Below, in pieces: positions 4,996 through 46,579 of a stretch of 64,000 bases of DNA. Source of the stretch: a virus (Duplodnaviria; Caudoviricetes); IMG/VR virus record IMGVR_UViG_2706796186_000001, positions 64,001-128,000 of that record. One strand, written 5' to 3'. A model generated the notes under the pieces. It saw only the letters and a program-made list of their open reading frames with translations, searched no databases and was not told the origin of the DNA. Position numbers and translations under genes: made by a program. How positions within the stretch are numbered: the stretch's first letter is position 1; each line of letters opens with the position of its first letter.

Positions 4996-6561
4996 TCAGA
5001 ATAAATCGTCGCCCATGCCACCGGTAAAGTGGTTGATAGAGGATGCCGTCACGGTCATCTCTTTGTCGCAATCCCAAGGTAGGATGCCAACGTCTGCAAA
5101 CGGTATAACAGTGTAATGATGTTTCTCATTGGTATCAATGATGGTACGGTGTTTACCACGTTGCACTTCTAAGAAGCTGTGACCGTTGACCACACGCTTG
5201 TTGAAGTACACCTCACCATCGGCTTCGTTATCCAGACTCGTACAGTTATCGTACAAGCCACGACCGGGCAGGTTCTTACAGAAGCCAACCGGGTCTACCG
5301 CTTTCAGACGTTTCCCTTCTGGAGAAATCTGGTGCGGTGCTAACAGGAAACCGTGGTTACGCACGACCTGAATGTTTCGGGCCATACGGTAAATCTCTTT
5401 GATGTCACTGCCTGCAATCCCGTTACCGTGTCCCGCTTTGTTGATGGTGCCAAGGTAGTCGGCACGAATCCCAACAACGTGGAAGCCGTCACGTTTGTAG
5501 TCAGTGATAAGGTCGTTCAGGTAATGCACTTTGAAATCGGTGTTCGTGTGTTTCTCAAACGAGTATTCCCACCCGTTCGCACGAATCTTACCAATCAGAT
5601 AATCAGCCATTTGCTGAACATGAGCAGCACGTTCTTCATCGGTGGCCGTCTCAGGCAGGGTCATTACCGGTGCAGCACCTTCAAAGTGACCGTAGATAGC
5701 CTGATAAGCGTAAGCGATGTTCACGTCCAGTTCGTTCTCAAGACTCAAGTCCAGAATCAATGGAGCCAAGTTACCTTTTACGTTCGCCATGACTTTTTCC
5801 GGTGTGTTAAACAACGGAACCGAGATAGCGGTCAAGAGACTAAACAGAGACTTACAGTTAAATGGCAGCGCAGGCATGAGCCACAATTCTTCGGTAATCC
5901 CTTTGTTACACCCCATCATTTGATTGATGGCTTTCCAACCGGTCTTCAAACCGTTACCGGCAACCTTACGGTTAATGTCGCTGAACGTCTTCACAAACGG
6001 TGCTCGGTCTGTGGTAATCAGCTTGTTCACCTGTGAAGGAATCTTATTATGAGAACGTTCACCGAACGTGGCCATCGATCCCGTCAGATCTTTCAGCGCT
6101 GTCTGGAGGTCAACGCGGGTTTCTGTTCCGTTCAACACGCCGAGTGTACGACCAAGGTATTGCTTTAACTGCACGCCTTGGATTGCCTGACGCAATTGGA
6201 AATAATATTGGGAGAGGGTTTTGTTCAGATAGTCGATACGTTCTTCTTCGGCTTCCGGCAATTCCTCAGCATCCATGAATTTCACAATCACATCGTATAG
6301 AGGGCGTGTTTGCGTGGTTGCCAGTTTCAAGCGCTTCATGACATTGGTGTGGTTGTATTCCATACCACCGTCGATGACTGATGTTATAATGTCTTTGATT
6401 TCAGCTAATGCCGAGCGCTCGTCACCTTCTTCGACGTAATCGGGGAGCTTGACCTCGTGGAGCACTTTTCTTATGACGTCATGATCTTTATCGGGCTCAG
6501 ACAGAAGGCTCTCTGCGTATAAGGCGGCTAAGGCTGTTATCAACATCATTTTACTATTCAT
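4996..6561 (-). CDS. DnaB-like replicative helicase (phiKZ-group type)
   Basis: LKTGWKAINQM, variant P-loop ALPFNCKS, LSLEN, ADYL, PHQIS, EAD and QRGKHR SF4 motifs; divergent from the capsid operon. Confidence 0.85.
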   Translation of the reverse strand: MNSKMMLITALAALYAESLLSEPDKDHDVIRKVLHEVKLPDYVEEGDERSALAEIKDIITSVIDGGMEYNHTNVMKRLKLATTQTRPLYDVIVKFMDAEELPEAEEERIDYLNKTLSQYYFQLRQAIQGVQLKQYLGRTLGVLNGTETRVDLQTALKDLTGSMATFGERSHNKIPSQVNKLITTDRAPFVKTFSDINRKVAGNGLKTGWKAINQMMGCNKGITEELWLMPALPFNCKSLFSLLTAISVPLFNTPEKVMANVKGNLAPLILDLSLENELDVNIAYAYQAIYGHFEGAAPVMTLPETATDEERAAHVQQMADYLIGKIRANGWEYSFEKHTNTDFKVHYLNDLITDYKRDGFHVVGIRADYLGTINKAGHGNGIAGSDIKEIYRMARNIQVVRNHGFLLAPHQISPEGKRLKAVDPVGFCKNLPGRGLYDNCTSLDNEADGEVYFNKRVVNGHSFLEVQRGKHRTIIDTNEKHHYTVIPFADVGILPWDCDKEMTVTASSINHFTGGMGDDLF

Positions 6562-40591: not shown

Positions 40592-41158
40592 ATGAAGTTC
40601 TGGGAGCGTTTTTGTCGCTTGTTTAAAGATGTCCCTGAGGCCCAGTCTGACGGTGACCGTTATACCCAAATCGTGCGTGACTACTTCAATGCAGGTAATC
40701 ACAACGTCGTGGAACTCTGTGATGCTATTGGCATGACACCACGCTCACTGTACTTTGCGGTTAACGACGACAACGTACGGGCGAACATTCTGCCCCGCCT
40801 CCCTGAAAAGATGCGGATGGAATTGCGTGATGAACTGACCGCGCGTGCGTTCAGTCGTCAGGCCGTCTCGTTAATTCGTCCGAGCACCGCGAAGTACGAT
40901 TTCGAAAACCTCAATGAGTTAATGGCACACGTACACCAGTTGTTCGAAACCTACCGCCTCGAACGTGGCGAGAAAGTGGACACCTCTATTAAGGCGTACA
41001 TCCACTCCCTTACACCACGTACCGTGCGTATCGCCTTCGTAGGCGGCGGTCACGAATTCAATGTGGGTATCATTGAAGGTATTAACGTTGTGCAGCAAAA
41101 CCTGCTTATGGTGAATTATGGAAAACTTAACGCCCGTGGAAATCGTCAATGTTTTTAA
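40592..41158 (+). CDS. Hypothetical protein with possible HTH
   Basis: NVVELCDAIGMTPRSLY resembles an HTH; overlaps the hslU start by 41 nt. Confidence 0.7.
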   Translation: MKFWERFCRLFKDVPEAQSDGDRYTQIVRDYFNAGNHNVVELCDAIGMTPRSLYFAVNDDNVRANILPRLPEKMRMELRDELTARAFSRQAVSLIRPSTAKYDFENLNELMAHVHQLFETYRLERGEKVDTSIKAYIHSLTPRTVRIAFVGGGHEFNVGIIEGINVVQQNLLMVNYGKLNARGNRQCF

Positions 41159-42863
41159 CCGTTATGTCCACGGTCAAGAACTGGCAAAAAAGATGTTGGC
41201 GATTGCTCTGCGTAACCGCGTACGGGTAGCACTGCTACCCCTCGGTGAACGTGACAGTGTTCGCAAACAGAATCTGTTGTTACTGGGGCCAACTGGCTGC
41301 GGTAAAACTGCGTTGATGCGTGTATTGAAGACGCAGTTTGGTTTACCCGTGTTAGAGCTGGACATGACAGGCTTTTCTGAGACGGGCTACGTGGGGCGTA
41401 ATCTCAATACCGTGGGGACGGACTTACAAACCCTCACGCGTTCAATCGCTTTGCCGGACTGGTACGTAGAAATGCGCACCGGGATGCAGCTCGAAAAAGA
41501 CGAGCAGCGCTATACCCGTGAAGAACTCAAAGCGTTAGAAGAAAAAGAGTACGAAGTGGAAAGCGCTGCACGACAGGCGGAATGGGATGCAGGCCGTGAT
41601 GCTAAAAAGCAACACGAACAAACGCTGAAAGATTTAGGCGTGTTCCCGGACGACGATACCTACAATCATTATCGCATGGTCTATTACATGCGTGCGTTTT
41701 TAGTGGGGTATCATGCGTTAAAGAACCTGCCGTACGACGTCATTGATTTCGCGGACATTGAAATGATTCATGGGCAGAAGCTCATTGATGTCGCGAAGAC
41801 TGTGGTTGGTCTTGTCGAGAAGATGGCTGGCAGACCGATCAACAGTATCGATGATCTCAATGAAGATCTCAGCGAGCGCACCGATGAGATGATGGAGAAC
41901 AATCCTGCCTTGTTGGGTGAGTTCATGGGACTGATGGCCTACAACGAAGTGTTGGAAGCCATTATGGAACTTGGCACCGATCGCCTCAGCAGTAACCCGG
42001 CGGCGGCCTGTGTCTCCTCCAGCGATTGGTACGACGTCGCGCACTCTTTCGATGAAGCGGATGAACAGGATATCCCGCCAGGCATTGCTTGGCGTCCGAT
42101 GGACTTCACGGAGTTTGCGCTCTACATCTGTGTGATGTTGGTGCGTGACCCGGAAGGTCTGGAGGAAGTCTTCGAAGACTGTGATGACTTCACCCGCTTC
42201 GCCGACAAGAAACTTTGGAGCTACACCATCCCTAAACCGGAAGTGGTGCAGCCTAAAGGGAAGCGTAATGTGTTGTCGAAGAAAGACCTCGACAAGGTGG
42301 CGAACTGTAATGGTCGCGACTTCGTGGAGAACTTCGGGGTGGTGTTCTTAGATGAGATTGACAAACTCATTGAAACGGATACCACGGGAAGGACACACGT
42401 CTCCCGCAGCGGTGTACAGCGCAGTCTGCTCAAGATGGTAGAAGGCGGCTTGTACGCCGGGATTGACACCACGAACATTCTGTTTGTCGGTGCCGGTTCT
42501 TTCGCAGAAGCGCCTGTTACCAAACTGATGCCAGAACTGCAAGGGCGCTTTACCTTGCGTGCCGAGCTGGAACCGTTGGATAAAGAAGCACTGATTGCGA
42601 TTTGTCGAATGGATAGCAGTGAGTTCCATGCAATGGTTCGACTCTTGCGAATCGAGGGTGTGAAAGTCAACTACGACCTTGACACCTTTGAGTACATTGC
42701 AGAGAAGACCGTTGAAGCGAACTCGGTAGATAACCTCGGCGCACGGCGCTTAGCCGCGATTGTCGAAGCGTTGTTCCAAGACGCGTTGTACGAACCCAAC
42801 AAGTACACGGAAAAAGGTTACGACCTGACAGGTAAAACCCTGCGTGCTAAGGAGAAACCGTGA
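41118..42863 (+). CDS. hslU: HslU (ClpY)-like AAA+ unfoldase
   Basis: LTP.EIV...NRYV.GQ..AKK..AIALRNR, GPTGCGKT, ETGYVGR, VFLDEIDK, GVQRSLL..VEG, PELQGRF and NLGARRL. Confidence 0.9.
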   Translation: MENLTPVEIVNVFNRYVHGQELAKKMLAIALRNRVRVALLPLGERDSVRKQNLLLLGPTGCGKTALMRVLKTQFGLPVLELDMTGFSETGYVGRNLNTVGTDLQTLTRSIALPDWYVEMRTGMQLEKDEQRYTREELKALEEKEYEVESAARQAEWDAGRDAKKQHEQTLKDLGVFPDDDTYNHYRMVYYMRAFLVGYHALKNLPYDVIDFADIEMIHGQKLIDVAKTVVGLVEKMAGRPINSIDDLNEDLSERTDEMMENNPALLGEFMGLMAYNEVLEAIMELGTDRLSSNPAAACVSSSDWYDVAHSFDEADEQDIPPGIAWRPMDFTEFALYICVMLVRDPEGLEEVFEDCDDFTRFADKKLWSYTIPKPEVVQPKGKRNVLSKKDLDKVANCNGRDFVENFGVVFLDEIDKLIETDTTGRTHVSRSGVQRSLLKMVEGGLYAGIDTTNILFVGAGSFAEAPVTKLMPELQGRFTLRAELEPLDKEALIAICRMDSSEFHAMVRLLRIEGVKVNYDLDTFEYIAEKTVEANSVDNLGARRLAAIVEALFQDALYEPNKYTEKGYDLTGKTLRAKEKP

Positions 42864-43054
42864 CGTATTTGACGCTCGCAGTTGTTTGGTTGCTGGCTCT
42901 GGTGGGTGTAGGCCACTTAGCCAGTCAACTAACGATTAAGTTTAAGTGGGACATGGGCATCTCTGTTTTACTCGCGGCGGTAGGGGGTTGGGCTATAACC
43001 TTCCCCTATATCTACTTCGTTGTTGTACCACTTTATCAAAATATCGGAAATTGA
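42860..43054 (+). CDS. Small two-TM membrane protein, 64 aa
   Basis: AAGGAG SD, GTGA overlap, two hydrophobic helices. Confidence 0.75.
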   Translation: MTYLTLAVVWLLALVGVGHLASQLTIKFKWDMGISVLLAAVGGWAITFPYIYFVVVPLYQNIGN

Positions 43055-43058
43055 GAAC

Positions 43059-43532
43059 ATGGAAAAGAAAACTGAACGTAACTTGATTGAAATCACAGGC
43101 AAGGGCGAAGACAACAACGGCAAGTTCTATTCCGTCGTGTTGTTAGACCAGTCCAAGATGAACGCTAATGGTCGTCAGTATAACGGCGATCTTGCGCATC
43201 TGGTGCGCGGTATCAAACGCATGCCGCGACTGTTCTGTGAAGTTGACCCGTATCACGATTACCGCTTCCAGTTCCCGGTAACCGATGACCGTTCTGTTTC
43301 TGGACCATGTACGGTCGACATGAAAAACGTTTGTGCATCTATCGAGAACATCCGTCACGATAAGATGAACCAGCGTGTGTCGGCTGAGCTGCGTCCGTGG
43401 GGCCCGCAGGCTTCGATGGTGCGTGATCTGTTGGACGGGGTCAACCAGAACGTGACCTTCGGGATGCGTGCGTTGGCAACCCCTGATGGCAAGATTGATA
43501 AAGTCATCACATGGGATTTGTTACCAGAATGA
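43059..43532 (+). CDS. T4 gp21-type prohead protease-like protein, probably inactive
   Basis: NANGRQY, V...NVC..I, ELRPWGP and VITWD; the E.DHP and F/VS.R catalytic segments read EVDPY and FGMR. Confidence 0.6.
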   Translation: MEKKTERNLIEITGKGEDNNGKFYSVVLLDQSKMNANGRQYNGDLAHLVRGIKRMPRLFCEVDPYHDYRFQFPVTDDRSVSGPCTVDMKNVCASIENIRHDKMNQRVSAELRPWGPQASMVRDLLDGVNQNVTFGMRALATPDGKIDKVITWDLLPE

Positions 43533-43565
43533 ATATCGCCGAACTGTTCTAATGAAAAAAAGCTC

Positions 43566-43586
43566 AGATAGATATTATCTTGATGA
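43566..43586 (+). promoter_or_regulatory. Putative phage promoter/operator motif
   Basis: AGATAGATATTATCTTGATGA after an A-run. Confidence 0.7.
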
Positions 43587-43657
43587 GCTTTCCATTATTA
43601 GTTCCAAGGAAGGTGCGTTTTACAATTACAATAAATTAAAATAATAAGGAGTCCGTC

Positions 43658-43834
43658 ATGGATAAAATTTATATCGTTACAGCAATCCTCTTTACCATCG
43701 CCTGCTTACTCAGCTGGCGTGTATCATCTAACATGAAACGTCGTAAGTGCCCACCGGGTGCTATCGCGTTTGGTGTTCAAGCCTGTGTTTATGGTTTTGT
43801 GGCCATCTACACCGGTGTGAAGTATTTCATCTAG
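43658..43834 (+). CDS. Small two-TM membrane protein, 58 aa (absent from the ORF track)
   Basis: TAAGGAG SD; MDKIYIVTAILFTIACLLSWRVSSNMKRRKCPPGAIAFGVQACVYGFVAIYTGVKYFI*. Confidence 0.8.
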   Translation: MDKIYIVTAILFTIACLLSWRVSSNMKRRKCPPGAIAFGVQACVYGFVAIYTGVKYFI

Positions 43835-43840
43835 CAGTAA

Positions 43841-43873
43841 AAAAGGGGCACGGAAGTGTCCTTTTTCTTTTTT
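43841..43873 (+). terminator. Intrinsic terminator
   Basis: AAAAGGGGCAC-ggaa-GTGTCCTTTT plus T-run. Confidence 0.75.
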
Positions 43874-43893
43874 CGTAAAATAAGGAGTATCAA

Positions 43894-44958
43894 ATGCCAC
43901 GTCTCTTAGCGTTTACCGGTGGAATTGATTCCACATGGGTGTTGCAGAAGTTAATTCAACAACCGTCATCCGATGGCGGTGAAGTGATTCATCCGGTGTA
44001 CATGGATTTCTATCAAGGTTCTCCGGCAGCCATTGTCGAGTTCCTGCTCGGCAGCGAAATCGCCCTGCGGCTGTTAAAGCACAACAAAGACAATTATAAA
44101 GAGCCGCTGGAATGGCGCTCACCCCCGTTGCAAATTTTCACCAGCTGTATTATCGGTCGCTCAAACGGAAACGAAAGTCGCCTGATTCAACAGGGTAACA
44201 CCGTGTTGGGTTTGGCACACCTGATGAATGCGGTACAAGCTCGCCATCCGGGGTCTACCGCCTTAACCGGCTGGAACAAAGCCGATTTCATTGAAAACAG
44301 TGCGCTGCAAGGCGAGTGGTCTGAAGAGGATTACCTGCGCCTGAAAAAACTCTACAGTGAAATGATGTTCTTCCAAGACCATCACTATCGCTGTTCTCCA
44401 CTTCTCACCCCGGCGTGGGATATGGAGAAGAAAGACATGTGGGATGCACTCCCGACTGATGTGCAAGAACTGATCACTGTGTGTTCAACCTACATGTTTA
44501 AGATTTACCATGTTAAGTCCGAGAACGCGCTGTACATCTCCTGTAACCCACAACACTTCGGTAAGTCTGTGCGGTATCTGGCCCGTGGGATTAACCTCAC
44601 GGCTGCCTGGCGTATAGCGATTGACGACGAGTTCCATCGCCGTCTTAACACAGACAACGTCCCGAGTAACCACTTCGCTGGAAGCTTCCCAAGTGAGTTG
44701 CTATCGTCGACCGAAACGAAGCACCGGCCATCACTGCGCATGCGTTCCGATGACCGCAACCTGCAAATCGAAGCCTACAGTATCGATGAGTGGAAAACGA
44801 AGTTTGACCATGTAGAAGATATGCTAAAGGTGGAACGTGAACGAGAACAAGCCGAGTACCGTGCCCAGCGAGAAAAAGAGAAAGCTGAAAGTCCGGACAG
44901 TGCAAATCGCGAAGTGGCGGAAGGCGAAGTCGCTGTTTCCAGCGGTGCCGCTGATTGA
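43894..44958 (+). CDS. QueC-like PP-loop ATP pyrophosphatase
   Basis: LLAFTGGIDST (SGGxDS variant), HPVYMDFYQG and LTPAWDMEKKDMW..LP......TVC; no CxxCxxC Zn cluster. Confidence 0.7.
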   Translation: MPRLLAFTGGIDSTWVLQKLIQQPSSDGGEVIHPVYMDFYQGSPAAIVEFLLGSEIALRLLKHNKDNYKEPLEWRSPPLQIFTSCIIGRSNGNESRLIQQGNTVLGLAHLMNAVQARHPGSTALTGWNKADFIENSALQGEWSEEDYLRLKKLYSEMMFFQDHHYRCSPLLTPAWDMEKKDMWDALPTDVQELITVCSTYMFKIYHVKSENALYISCNPQHFGKSVRYLARGINLTAAWRIAIDDEFHRRLNTDNVPSNHFAGSFPSELLSSTETKHRPSLRMRSDDRNLQIEAYSIDEWKTKFDHVEDMLKVEREREQAEYRAQREKEKAESPDSANREVAEGEVAVSSGAAD

Positions 44959-45262
44959 TGTCACGGTTAAATCCGGTATCAAAGCCTTAGCCCCAACGTG
45001 GGACTTTCTGATGGTGTACAAGAACTCCGACAAAGGTCCCGAGGCTGAAGACGCCTACACGAAAAAATATAAAAGCAGAATCCAACAGCTCAAACAGGAT
45101 GACCCTGATGTGATGTTGGAACTGCTGTATCAGGATGAGATTATCCTGATGTGTTATTGCCCGTCCGGTAAGTTTTGTCACCGGCTTTTATTAGTTGATG
45201 AGTTCAAAGCCTTAGGCGATGAACACAATGTCGAAGTAACCTACGAAGGAGAAATCACATGA
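44837..45262 (+). CDS. DUF488-like Cys-motif protein
   Basis: DVTVKSG...LAPTW, Y...Y...I and LMCYCPSGKFCHRLLL; GTG start inside the upstream gene. Confidence 0.7.
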   Translation: MNENKPSTVPSEKKRKLKVRTVQIAKWRKAKSLFPAVPLIDVTVKSGIKALAPTWDFLMVYKNSDKGPEAEDAYTKKYKSRIQQLKQDDPDVMLELLYQDEIILMCYCPSGKFCHRLLLVDEFKALGDEHNVEVTYEGEIT

Positions 45263-45651
45263 GTTTTGATATCAAGAACGACACCCTGCGCATCATTGTT
45301 CCGGTCGGCACTATTCCCGGTCGTGAAATCCCACTTTTTGAAAACGCCACGGCGTTAGCCAAAGAAGCTTTCGAAGCTGCGGGTTTCGAGAAAGTGGAAC
45401 TGGTTGAGAAACCGGCAGCGTTTTTCACCCGTGCTTACAGCGACAGCGGGCAGGCTTGGGCTGCACTGTATAACTACGGTTTGGTATTACGCTCGTCGTT
45501 TACGCCGTACGTCACCATTGAAGAACTGCAAAAGCACGCAGCCATCATCAATGTGTGGCATGACATCTTCAGCCACAAAATCCCAACGGATACACTGATC
45601 AGATTCTCGCCGACCCTGACCATGATTGCCGTTAACGATTTGGCCAAATAA
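45259..45651 (+). CDS. Hypothetical protein, 130 aa
   Basis: AAGGAG SD, ATGA overlap. Confidence 0.75.
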   Translation: MSFDIKNDTLRIIVPVGTIPGREIPLFENATALAKEAFEAAGFEKVELVEKPAAFFTRAYSDSGQAWAALYNYGLVLRSSFTPYVTIEELQKHAAIINVWHDIFSHKIPTDTLIRFSPTLTMIAVNDLAK

Positions 45652-45676
45652 ATTAGCACCCACAAGGAGTATCAAC

Positions 45677-46579
45677 ATGCAGGCTCAATTTATCCGCGTA
45701 CCGTTGTTTTCGAAAAATACCATCTCCGACAACATTGTTCTTCAGAATCTAATCGATACCACCCACAAACTTTATACGCTGGCGAAAGACAAGTTTCCGC
45801 ACATCGAGGGCTATAGCGTCCCCGAAGAAACACGCACTTACGTACTGATGGAGAAGTACGCCCGTCCGGCTTACCGCGCATTATCGACGCTGGCACCCGA
45901 TTCGGAAGAAGCAGCGAAAATCATTGCGTTATTGCACGAAGTCTATTGTGGTATCGCGGCGGACGATTGTGTAAACGTCGAACCGACGCCAGCGATGCTG
46001 TTGGCTATCAACAATCAGCACCTCCAGTCTGACATGTACATGCGTGCTGTGTTAGAAAGTAAACCTGGGTTCATGCGCAGGAGTATTGCTAACAACGGGC
46101 CGCGCGTTAAAAACCCTATCAATAAGGATATCACGCTTATCGGTGTCGCGGATATGCCTGCCGATATGCAAAAGGCTATTCTCGAAACGATGGCGCGGTT
46201 TAACGCAGGCAGAAACACGTTGTTGACTGGCCGCGACCGTAACATTATTACCGGTCCGGTGAGTTTCAATTTGAATTACCTCGGCGACGGTAAGTGGGAA
46301 GCCGATATCCACATTGTGGCTCAATCAGTTTCCGGACAGATCTGGCAGTTCATCATTGAACGTCTGAAGGCAGACACTGATTCAACCGAAGATAAATATA
46401 TCATCAACGGTGATAAAATGGTTATCGAGATGGCCCAAATGTTGCCGGAACGTCAGATGAGTGATGTTGTTATCAAACTGGTCACCAATGGTCTCAAAAA
46501 CACCATTATCCATGCCCTGTTGGATATCAGCAAAAACCGTTATCAAAATGAAATTATTCTTCGTTCCCTGAAGAAATAA
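45677..46579 (+). CDS. Hypothetical protein, 300 aa
   Basis: CACAAGGAGTAT SD before ATG 45677. Confidence 0.8.
   Translation: MQAQFIRVPLFSKNTISDNIVLQNLIDTTHKLYTLAKDKFPHIEGYSVPEETRTYVLMEKYARPAYRALSTLAPDSEEAAKIIALLHEVYCGIAADDCVNVEPTPAMLLAINNQHLQSDMYMRAVLESKPGFMRRSIANNGPRVKNPINKDITLIGVADMPADMQKAILETMARFNAGRNTLLTGRDRNIITGPVSFNLNYLGDGKWEADIHIVAQSVSGQIWQFIIERLKADTDSTEDKYIINGDKMVIEMAQMLPERQMSDVVIKLVTNGLKNTIIHALLDISKNRYQNEIILRSLKK

Follow-up and report, generated by a model that had tools for sequence, protein, structure and literature searches.

Two QueC-like proteins of bacterial immunity, Cap9 of type IV CBASS and QatC of the QatABCD system, modify protein N-termini, and both proteins are required for defence (10.1101/2025.04.06.647259; PMC13279940). 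An experimentally refined signature of QueC comprises SGGxDS, YxQxHxxE, VPxRN, YPDC, K165 and C(x)8CxxCxxC (PMC13329287), and Hutinet et al. 2019 (PMC6884629) suspected that the singleton "QueC" proteins of phages are a subgroup of N-type ATP pyrophosphatases with an unrelated function. Here we describe two overlapping open reading frames (ORFs) from the virus record IMGVR_UViG_2706796186_000001: ORF1 (43894-44958), encoding a divergent, zinc-less PP-loop ATP pyrophosphatase of the QueC family, and ORF2 (44837-45262), encoding a DUF488-N3a protein. Positions refer to a window of 64,000 nucleotides, bases 64001-128000 of the 240,761-bp record, and all features placed in the window lie on its plus strand. 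Across the stretch 43500-45700, DNA identity is 93% with Salmonella phage pSal-SNUABM-04 and 91% with Erwinia phages pEa_SNUABM_42 and 43; all three are jumbo phages of the phiKZ/SPN3US kind assigned to Machinavirus. A first-pass annotation of this DNA had proposed that the two genes encode one two-component enzyme that modifies a base, tRNA or protein; what it had observed was confirmed by our analysis, and its interpretation was partly supported.

The ORF1 protein (354 residues, beginning MPRLLAFTGGIDS) matched the unnamed family phrog_8825 from end to end, and when searched alone it had no Pfam match at E<=0.1, no relevant NCBIfam match (TIGR00364 tested) and none in PADLOC. Its PP-loop motif is TGGIDS, at residues 8-13 (43915-43932), and the first-pass annotation had called the enzyme QueC-like, a description borne out by both profile and model matches. 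In an alignment of 29 family members, which are 17-90% identical to the window protein, G10 and S13 of this loop were invariant, with S or T at position 8 and D or E at position 12. The family signature further included E49, Q99-Q100, G126-W127-x-K-x-D131-x2-E134, P173-x-W175-D-x2-K179-x2-M-W183 and K224-x3-Y228-x3-G232. Weak Pfam matches to QueC were found for 11 of the 29 members, and to the generic PP-loop family for six. When compared with the sequences of solved structures, the 29-sequence profile matched Cap9 (E 2.4e-4), nitrile synthetase, TilS, QueC and LarE, and hhalign paired ORF1 with Escherichia coli QueC at 90.9% probability over the N-terminal 61 residues. The clusters nearest ORF1 in the ESM Atlas were virus-only and QueC-like.

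An AlphaFold model of ORF1 built from the 29 sequences (predicted local distance difference test score, pLDDT, 85.9) placed the protein in the PP-loop superfamily. Every top Foldseek match to the model was a PP-loop enzyme, and structural alignment with VIA-align ranked Cap9 first (Z 14.0; root-mean-square deviation 2.9; 176 of 181 residues), ahead of QueC (Z 12.7 and 11.9), ThiI (Z 12.3), QatC (Z 11.9) and YcfA (Z 11.8). The predicted Rossmann-like catalytic domain occupies approximately residues 1-235 (43894-44598), where model residues 1-233/234 align to the whole of Cap9 and QueC. The next segment, approximately residues 236-335 (44599-44898), is a C-terminal extension without a counterpart in Cap9 or QueC; judged by the secondary structure and pLDDT of the model, it contains short strands and a long helix rich in charged residues (297-332). 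An acidic tail, residues 336-354 (44899-44955), is predicted to be disordered from its pLDDT (block means of approximately 38-48 for residues 341-354). The model thus indicates that ORF1 has the Rossmann-like alpha/beta fold of the PP-loop ATP pyrophosphatase superfamily, and the profile matches, hhalign pairing, model alignments and Atlas neighbours together assign it to the QueC lineage.

Comparison with the described systems revealed both retained and rebuilt elements. Cap9 (PDB 9nto_B), the QueC-like protein deazaguanylase of type IV CBASS and the top match by both structure and profile, shares with ORF1 the PP-loop, an aromatic-x-Q...E element after strand 2 and a P-x5-K element (TPaWDxxK in the ORF1 family, APLLDWHK in Cap9). 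However, Cap9 retains the zinc motif, YxDC (Y115/D117) and RN (R86) (PMC13329287), none of which is found in ORF1, and ORF1 is twice as long, carries the helical C-terminal extension and is a phage gene rather than a member of a defence operon. QatC (PDB 9y01/9y02) aligned over 193 residues, reaching model residue 304, and resembles ORF1 in combining the QueC fold with a remodelled active site and extensions, the canonical substrate motifs being gone from both. Yet QatC keeps a variant zinc motif and a motif set of its own (PMC13329287), and its partner is QatB, for which a glycine at the N-terminus is indispensable (PMC13279940), whereas the leader of the DUF488 protein is neither glycine-initiated nor conserved. 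Pfam, phrog and PADLOC scans found no CD-NTase, QatA, QatB, QatD or Cap10 partner gene near ORF1. The PP-loop fold is also common to ThiI and YcfA, which thiolate tRNA U8 and form 6-thioguanine, respectively. ThiI pairs its PP-loop with a cysteine-bearing rhodanese domain, resembling the neighbourhood of a PP-loop enzyme and a cysteine protein seen here, but it has a catalytic cysteine and a THUMP domain; ORF1 has no conserved cysteine and no THUMP or rhodanese Pfam match, and its cysteine-bearing neighbour is separable from it. The singleton phage "QueC" proteins (PMC6884629) are, like ORF1, encoded without DpdA or other que genes; those described, from SP-15 and SFP10, belong to phage groups other than the jumbo phages of ORF1.

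Canonical QueC (PF06508 cluster 1; PDB 3bl5 and 2pg3) has the same fold and similarly spaced conserved elements, and of its signature ORF1 keeps the PP-loop, an aromatic-x-Q...E remnant and the P-x5-K element. In the hhalign pairing, D-Y-G-Q-R-H..E of QueC corresponds to D38-F-Y-Q41-G-S43..E49 of ORF1, so that the aromatic residue, Q and E of YxQxHxxE are retained, the histidine is replaced and three residues are inserted. Neither VPxRN nor YPDC occurs in the ORF1 sequence; the motifs conserved in the family at comparable places are QQxN and GWxKxD. The first-pass annotation had also noted the missing zinc cluster, and the family alignment agrees: none of the four ORF1 cysteines (85, 167, 197 and 217) is conserved and no column holds cysteine in more than seven of the 29 sequences. 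ORF1 therefore has no zinc knuckle, no 4Fe-4S site such as those of TtuA, NcsA or LarE, and no catalytic cysteine like that of ThiI or MnmA.

The pathway context is likewise missing. That queD, queE, folE and dpdA are not found had been said of the window, and profile searches extended this to the entire 240,761-bp genome, in which Pfam found no QueC (PF06508), TGT/DpdA (PF01702), GTP cyclohydrolase I (PF01227) or PTPS (PF01242). The genome's two radical-SAM genes are not QueE-like: even for the QueE model that matched them best, the score was 35 bits, where the cut-off is 260. GenBank notes on relatives cite ExsB/QueC domains or a "queuosine biosynthesis protein", and a phage could in principle take FolE, QueD and QueE from its host, leaving ORF1 to act as a working QueC on host 7-carboxy-7-deazaguanine (CDG) so as to supply 7-deazaguanine for phage DNA or tRNA. 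This reading is very improbable: the protein has no Pfam QueC match, the essential histidine of YxQxHxxE is lost, the genome encodes no DpdA/TGT for base insertion, and functional unrelatedness has already been suspected for singleton phage "QueC" proteins (Hutinet et al. 2019, PMC6884629). Because it lacks the zinc cluster, VPxRN and YPDC, and the genome lacks the pathway partners, ORF1 cannot, judged by its sequence, be a canonical preQ0 synthase, as the first-pass annotation had also proposed.

The ORF1 family is tiny, accessory and found in phage contexts. A word search of 5.8 billion proteins returned five relatives, and a full HMMER search of 1.84 billion representatives, from which cellular relatives were judged, returned 27 clusters. 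With tblastn, the family was detected in 67 of 50,697 phage records, and seven of its eight IMG/VR loci lie on contigs of 241-287 kb.

ORF2, 141 residues when translated from its GTG, belongs to DUF488-N3a (PF22751; phrog_2450), the family described by Pfam as the "Active DUF488-N3 subclade" (42.4 bits against a cut-off of 27, E 1e-10); its score against PF04343, 18.3 bits, was under the cut-off of 22.2. The first 16 residues form an unconstrained leader that arose through the overlap with ORF1, and conservation begins with the domain at residue 17 (nt 44885). The CYC-x5-CHR element reported by the first-pass annotation lies within CYCPSGKFCHR at residues 106-116 (45152-45184), the presumed active site: C106, Y107, C108, G111, F113, C114, H115 and R116 were invariant in 13 DUF488 sequences, as were D41, T43-V-K45, G47, A52-P53, W55, K62 and Y74. 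Homologues are mostly stand-alone proteins of 118-134 residues and virus-dominated, and they start at the first strand with MK(L/V)YTxQ; among them is gp151 of phiKZ, matched by the DUF488 profile at E 2.3e-36. No solved structure related to DUF488 was detectable by sequence. Weak PADLOC matches linked ORF2 to the candidate systems PDC-M45C and PDC-M19A (E 4e-4 and 3e-3). We found no functional study in the literature on DUF488, YeaO or PF04343 and nothing on SPN3US gp119/gp120 or phiKZ gp151, on which the main text of the phiKZ transposon paper is silent.

Three natural fusions (P0044, P0045 and P0046; 311-323 residues) join an N-terminal DUF488-N3a domain to a DEDDh 3'-5' exonuclease of the RNase_T/Rv2179c type, and at least one of them is encoded on a large, probably viral contig (L044, gene 5001-5972). 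These fusions suggest that DUF488 acts at nucleic-acid 3' ends, for example by removing a blocking phosphate before exonucleolysis, and point to a role for DUF488-N3a in nucleic-acid end processing. The contig L044 also carries Ank-repeat, NUDIX, nucleoside deoxyribosyltransferase and ADP-ribosylglycohydrolase genes. In work of 2023, Burroughs and Aravind reportedly grouped DUF488 with RapZ-C and DUF4326 in a rhodanese-phosphatase superfamily, for which they are said to have predicted DNA-end processing in virus-host conflicts.

The two genes are physically interlocked, as had been noticed earlier, through an overlap of 122 nt (44837-44958) in which ORF2 is read in the +1 frame relative to ORF1. 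This length depends on the GTG at 44837 being the start of ORF2, where the start is best placed from the sequence: a Shine-Dalgarno-like AAAGGTGG lies inside ORF1 at 44826-44833, the GTG and this ribosome site are kept in all five close Machinavirus relatives, and in pSal-SNUABM-04 and pEa_SNUABM_6 the GTG is the sole start codon 5' of the conserved first strand. In the five relatives the site reads AAAGGTGGA or, in one phage, AAGGGTGGA, followed by A or T and then C before the GTG. The existence of the overlap is independent of the choice of start, because the DUF488 domain itself (from nt 44885) begins 74 nt before the ORF1 stop. The same arrangement was found in all 11 adjacent pairs from phages of Machinavirus, Erskinevirus and Seoulvirus, in which the ORF1 stop lies 41-161 nt inside the coding sequence of the DUF488 domain and DUF488 is always in the +1 frame.

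Substitution patterns indicate how the shared nucleotides are divided. In a comparison of the window with its four close relatives, lineages that are not independent, eight of the ten differences in the first 50 nt of the overlap were silent for ORF1 and changed ORF2; downstream of these, 16 of 38 differences were silent for ORF2 and six for ORF1. This shift in silent sites implies that constraint passes from the ORF1 helix to the first strand and helix of DUF488 at approximately nt 44887. The disordered ORF1 tail is overprinted on that first strand and helix, and the conservation of "EVAxGE" in the tail is the other-frame image of DUF488 KWRKA, which is kept even in non-overlapping homologues. 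On these sequence comparisons, the interlock is a case of overprinting, in which a dispensable ORF1 tail lies over a dispensable DUF488 leader and the start of its domain. It probably gives translational coupling, and it is not evidence of joint function.

The placement of the ORF2 start has a practical consequence for annotation, since the N-termini of the DUF488 genes are truncated in several GenBank relatives. In pSal-SNUABM-04, pEa_SNUABM_43, _10, _6 and _4 and phiEaH2 the annotated gene begins at an internal start, giving products of 83-105 residues without the conserved first strand or the WRKA helix; among the loci examined, these truncated annotations span 7622-7939 in L001, 4470-4721 in L002, 2612/2621-2863/2872 in L022/L023/L026 and 5100-5348 in L004.

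Linkage of the two genes was found to be confined to one syntenic lineage. By tblastn over the phage records, DUF488 was present in 285 and ORF1 in 67; the listed records with both number 48, all of the SPN3US-like supergroup, and the genes are adjacent in 43 of these. The expectation that the pair would be linked in related phages thus held for Seoulvirus, Erskinevirus and Machinavirus, where the genes are adjacent, and failed for Wellingtonvirus, where an HslU-like gene splits them, and for other phages, where one occurs solo. In Wellington, Kwan and pEa_SNUABM_11 the genes lie approximately 2.5-2.7 kb apart, and in Kwan the HslU-like gene and two small genes stand between the ORF1 homologue and DUF488. 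Whole-genome profile searches found both genes in SPN3US (gp119 and gp120), DUF488 (gp151) and no ORF1 relative in phiKZ, and ORF1 relatives and no DUF488 in Klebsiella phage Miami, Pseudomonas phage EL and Aeromonas phage AerS_266. Cronobacter phage CR5 has DUF488 and lacks the ORF1 family; the ORF1 position between the HslU-like gene and DUF488 is occupied by CR5_128 (L020 2995-4035, 346 residues), a gene without a family match that overlaps DUF488 by 35 nt. CR5_128 was considered as an ORF1 homologue and rejected, having an hhalign probability of 0.06 and no PP-loop despite its similar length. The DUF488 motif was not found within 5 kb of eight distant ORF1 loci and was present at five closer ones. 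Elsewhere the neighbours of DUF488-N3a are PhoH, NrdD, thymidylate kinase or a REC-domain gene, and no recurring third neighbour was found beside DUF488 or the distant ORF1 homologues (BLASTP for both sets, phmmer for the distant ORF1 set). Because each gene occurs without the other elsewhere, the linkage fits common descent in one syntenic lineage.

These distributions bear directly on the proposal that the pair forms one two-component enzyme, in which ORF1 would adenylate a base, tRNA or protein and DUF488 would supply a cysteine-bound persulfide or phosphoryl group, as a split analogue of ThiI. Adjacency and overlap in 43 of the 48 records and across three genera speak for this arrangement, as do the placing of ThiI among the best structural matches to ORF1, the complementary pattern of three invariant cysteines in DUF488 and none conserved in ORF1, and the reported membership of DUF488 in the rhodanese-phosphatase superfamily. 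We nevertheless regard it as unlikely, since whole genomes hold either family without the other, the two genes stand apart in Kwan, Wellington and pEa_SNUABM_11, and in CR5 an unrelated gene in the place of ORF1 still overlaps DUF488. Most DUF488-N3a genes, moreover, occur in other contexts (PhoH, thymidylate kinase, exonuclease fusions), and the parts that overlap are the disordered tail of one protein and the unconstrained leader of the other. A single ThiI-like chain could also arise if a programmed +1 frameshift fused ORF1 to DUF488, and the constant +1 relation in the 11 adjacent pairs would be compatible with this; shared ancestry explains the constant frame, however, and we consider a frameshift highly implausible. 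A conserved start codon and Shine-Dalgarno site serve ORF2 independently, DUF488-N3a proteins are as a rule separate chains of 118-134 residues, and no natural fusion of a PP-loop domain to DUF488 turned up when longer proteins were searched for.

The closeness of ORF1 to Cap9 and QatC raises a further alternative, in which ORF1 is a counter-defence enzyme or mimic directed against these proteins that diverts 7-carboxy-7-deazaguanine, miscaps the N-termini of CD-NTase or QatB, or serves as a decoy. Cap9 and QatC, which act on protein N-termini, are required for defence (10.1101/2025.04.06.647259; PMC13279940), Cap9 is the best match to ORF1 by structure and by profile with QatC close to it, and the gene is accessory and confined to phages whose known hosts are Enterobacterales, Pseudomonas and Aeromonas. 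Against this, the deazaguanine-binding motifs of Cap9 (YxDC, RN) and its zinc site are missing from ORF1 (PMC13329287), the strictly conserved PP-loop speaks against a passive decoy, and no CD-NTase- or QatB-like target is encoded nearby, so that we consider it a doubtful explanation. A more elaborate version holds that ORF1 is a counter-weapon built on the Cap9/QatC scaffold, acting as an ATP-dependent ligase that joins a nucleobase-like or other carboxylate group to protein termini or as a drain of the deazaguanine precursor on which those systems rely, and that with DUF488, as a co-expressed end-processing enzyme, it forms a small anti-defence cassette of the SPN3US lineage; this we offer as speculation of low probability. 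In more general terms, an anti-defence role would be plausible for either gene, as accessory genes confined to phages, and a role in nucleotide modification is likewise conceivable.

The explanation we favour, and consider somewhat probable, is that ORF1 and ORF2 are two separate accessory enzymes of a jumbo phage of the nucleus-forming type (phiKZ/SPN3US-like), co-transcribed and coupled through their overprinted junction. ORF1 is a new variant within the QueC family and ORF2 a member of a known family. We propose that ORF1, in which the ATP/pyrophosphate loop is strictly conserved, is catalytically active as a QueC-lineage PP-loop ATP pyrophosphatase, and that its pocket has been rebuilt: Trp-rich GWxKxD and PxWDxxKxxMW elements have replaced VPxRN, YPDC and the zinc knuckle, and a helical extension has been gained. 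ATP would bind at the PP-loop motif, the substrate in the Trp-rich pocket would be adenylated on a carbonyl or carboxyl oxygen, and a nitrogen or sulfur nucleophile would then displace AMP, as proposed because QueC, Cap9, ThiI, YcfA, TilS, LarE, GMP synthase and NAD synthetase work in this way. As the most likely substrate we suggest either a base or nucleotide of purine or deazapurine type or, as in the case of Cap9 and QatC, the terminus of a protein, classes favoured because ORF1 is close to Cap9, QatC, QueC and YcfA; conversion of CDG to preQ0 for DNA or tRNA would not be among its reactions. ORF2 would be a stand-alone DUF488-N3a enzyme acting separately through its invariant Cys/His/Arg motif, presumably on phosphorylated sugar termini of nucleic acids or nucleotides in an end-processing or phosphatase-type reaction.

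Several points weigh against this explanation. The ORF1 structure is a prediction rather than a solved one. The same-frame overlap persists across three phage genera, which could reflect selection for stoichiometric co-expression of partners. Sulfur transfer by ORF1, which lacks a conserved cysteine, would require an outside donor such as a cysteine protein. The exonuclease fusions number only three proteins, and the reported placement of DUF488 in the rhodanese-phosphatase superfamily is a lead.

The surrounding genes place the pair in a compact, co-oriented region. ORF1 is preceded by a Shine-Dalgarno-like AGGAG(T) at 43883-43888, 5 nt 5' of its ATG. Directly 5' of this ribosome site, between ORF1 and a gene for a small hydrophobic, probably membrane, protein of 58 residues (43658-43834), a consensus scan and the sequence revealed a terminator-like hairpin with an 11-pair stem, a 4-nt loop and a following T-run (43841-43875), which may act as an intrinsic terminator or attenuator, with less read-through into ORF1. 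A scan for sigma-70 promoters gave fewer matches here than in shuffled sequence and is uninformative, because phages of the phiKZ/SPN3US kind carry their own RNA polymerases. On the 3' side, the ATG of a gene for a 130-residue protein (phrog_20829; 45259-45651) overlaps the ORF2 stop (ATGA) in the same orientation, and the gene is probably co-translated with ORF2; in phiKZ and three metagenomic phage contigs, the neighbours of DUF488 included no homologue of it. Further upstream of ORF1 lie a gene for an HslU-like AAA+ ATPase of 581 residues (41118-42863) and one for a short paralogue of the S80 prohead protease of 170 residues (43020-43532). An insert of approximately 300 residues lies between the two AAA matches of the HslU-like protein (residues 53-96 and 405-478), and an HslV-like protease is annotated a few genes upstream of it in relatives. 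In the S80 paralogue, labelled "head maturation protease" in relatives, the match to the phiKZ-type family is confined to the C-terminal part (profile positions 88-175 of 229).

Other observations concern the variable content of these genomes. A gene for a 317-residue protein (phrog_17216; 45626-46579) is also present in pSal-SNUABM-04 and is missing from the same position in pEa_SNUABM_43, indicating an indel in otherwise collinear genomes. Outside the window, the two radical-SAM genes scored against QueE, encoding 448 and 297 residues (loci L032 and L033), are adjacent on the minus strand at genome positions of approximately 138200-140430; both look like SPASM peptide maturases, the larger protein resembling those of the SPASM/ranthipeptide type (approximately 125 bits, under the cut-offs), and the pair is unusual cargo in a jumbo phage.

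QueC-family enzymes have only recently been found to do more than make preQ0, with Cap9 and QatC attaching deazaguanine to protein N-termini. A phage-only branch in which the ATP loop is kept, the substrate elements are replaced and the zinc is lost suggests that the scaffold has been repurposed again, this time on the virus side, and identifying the substrate of ORF1 might uncover a previously undescribed modification of nucleotides or proteins, or a means of counter-defence. For the DUF488-N3a family, widespread among large phages and present in 285 phage records, the exonuclease fusions provide a concrete hypothesis, namely that its members take part in nucleic-acid 3'-end processing.

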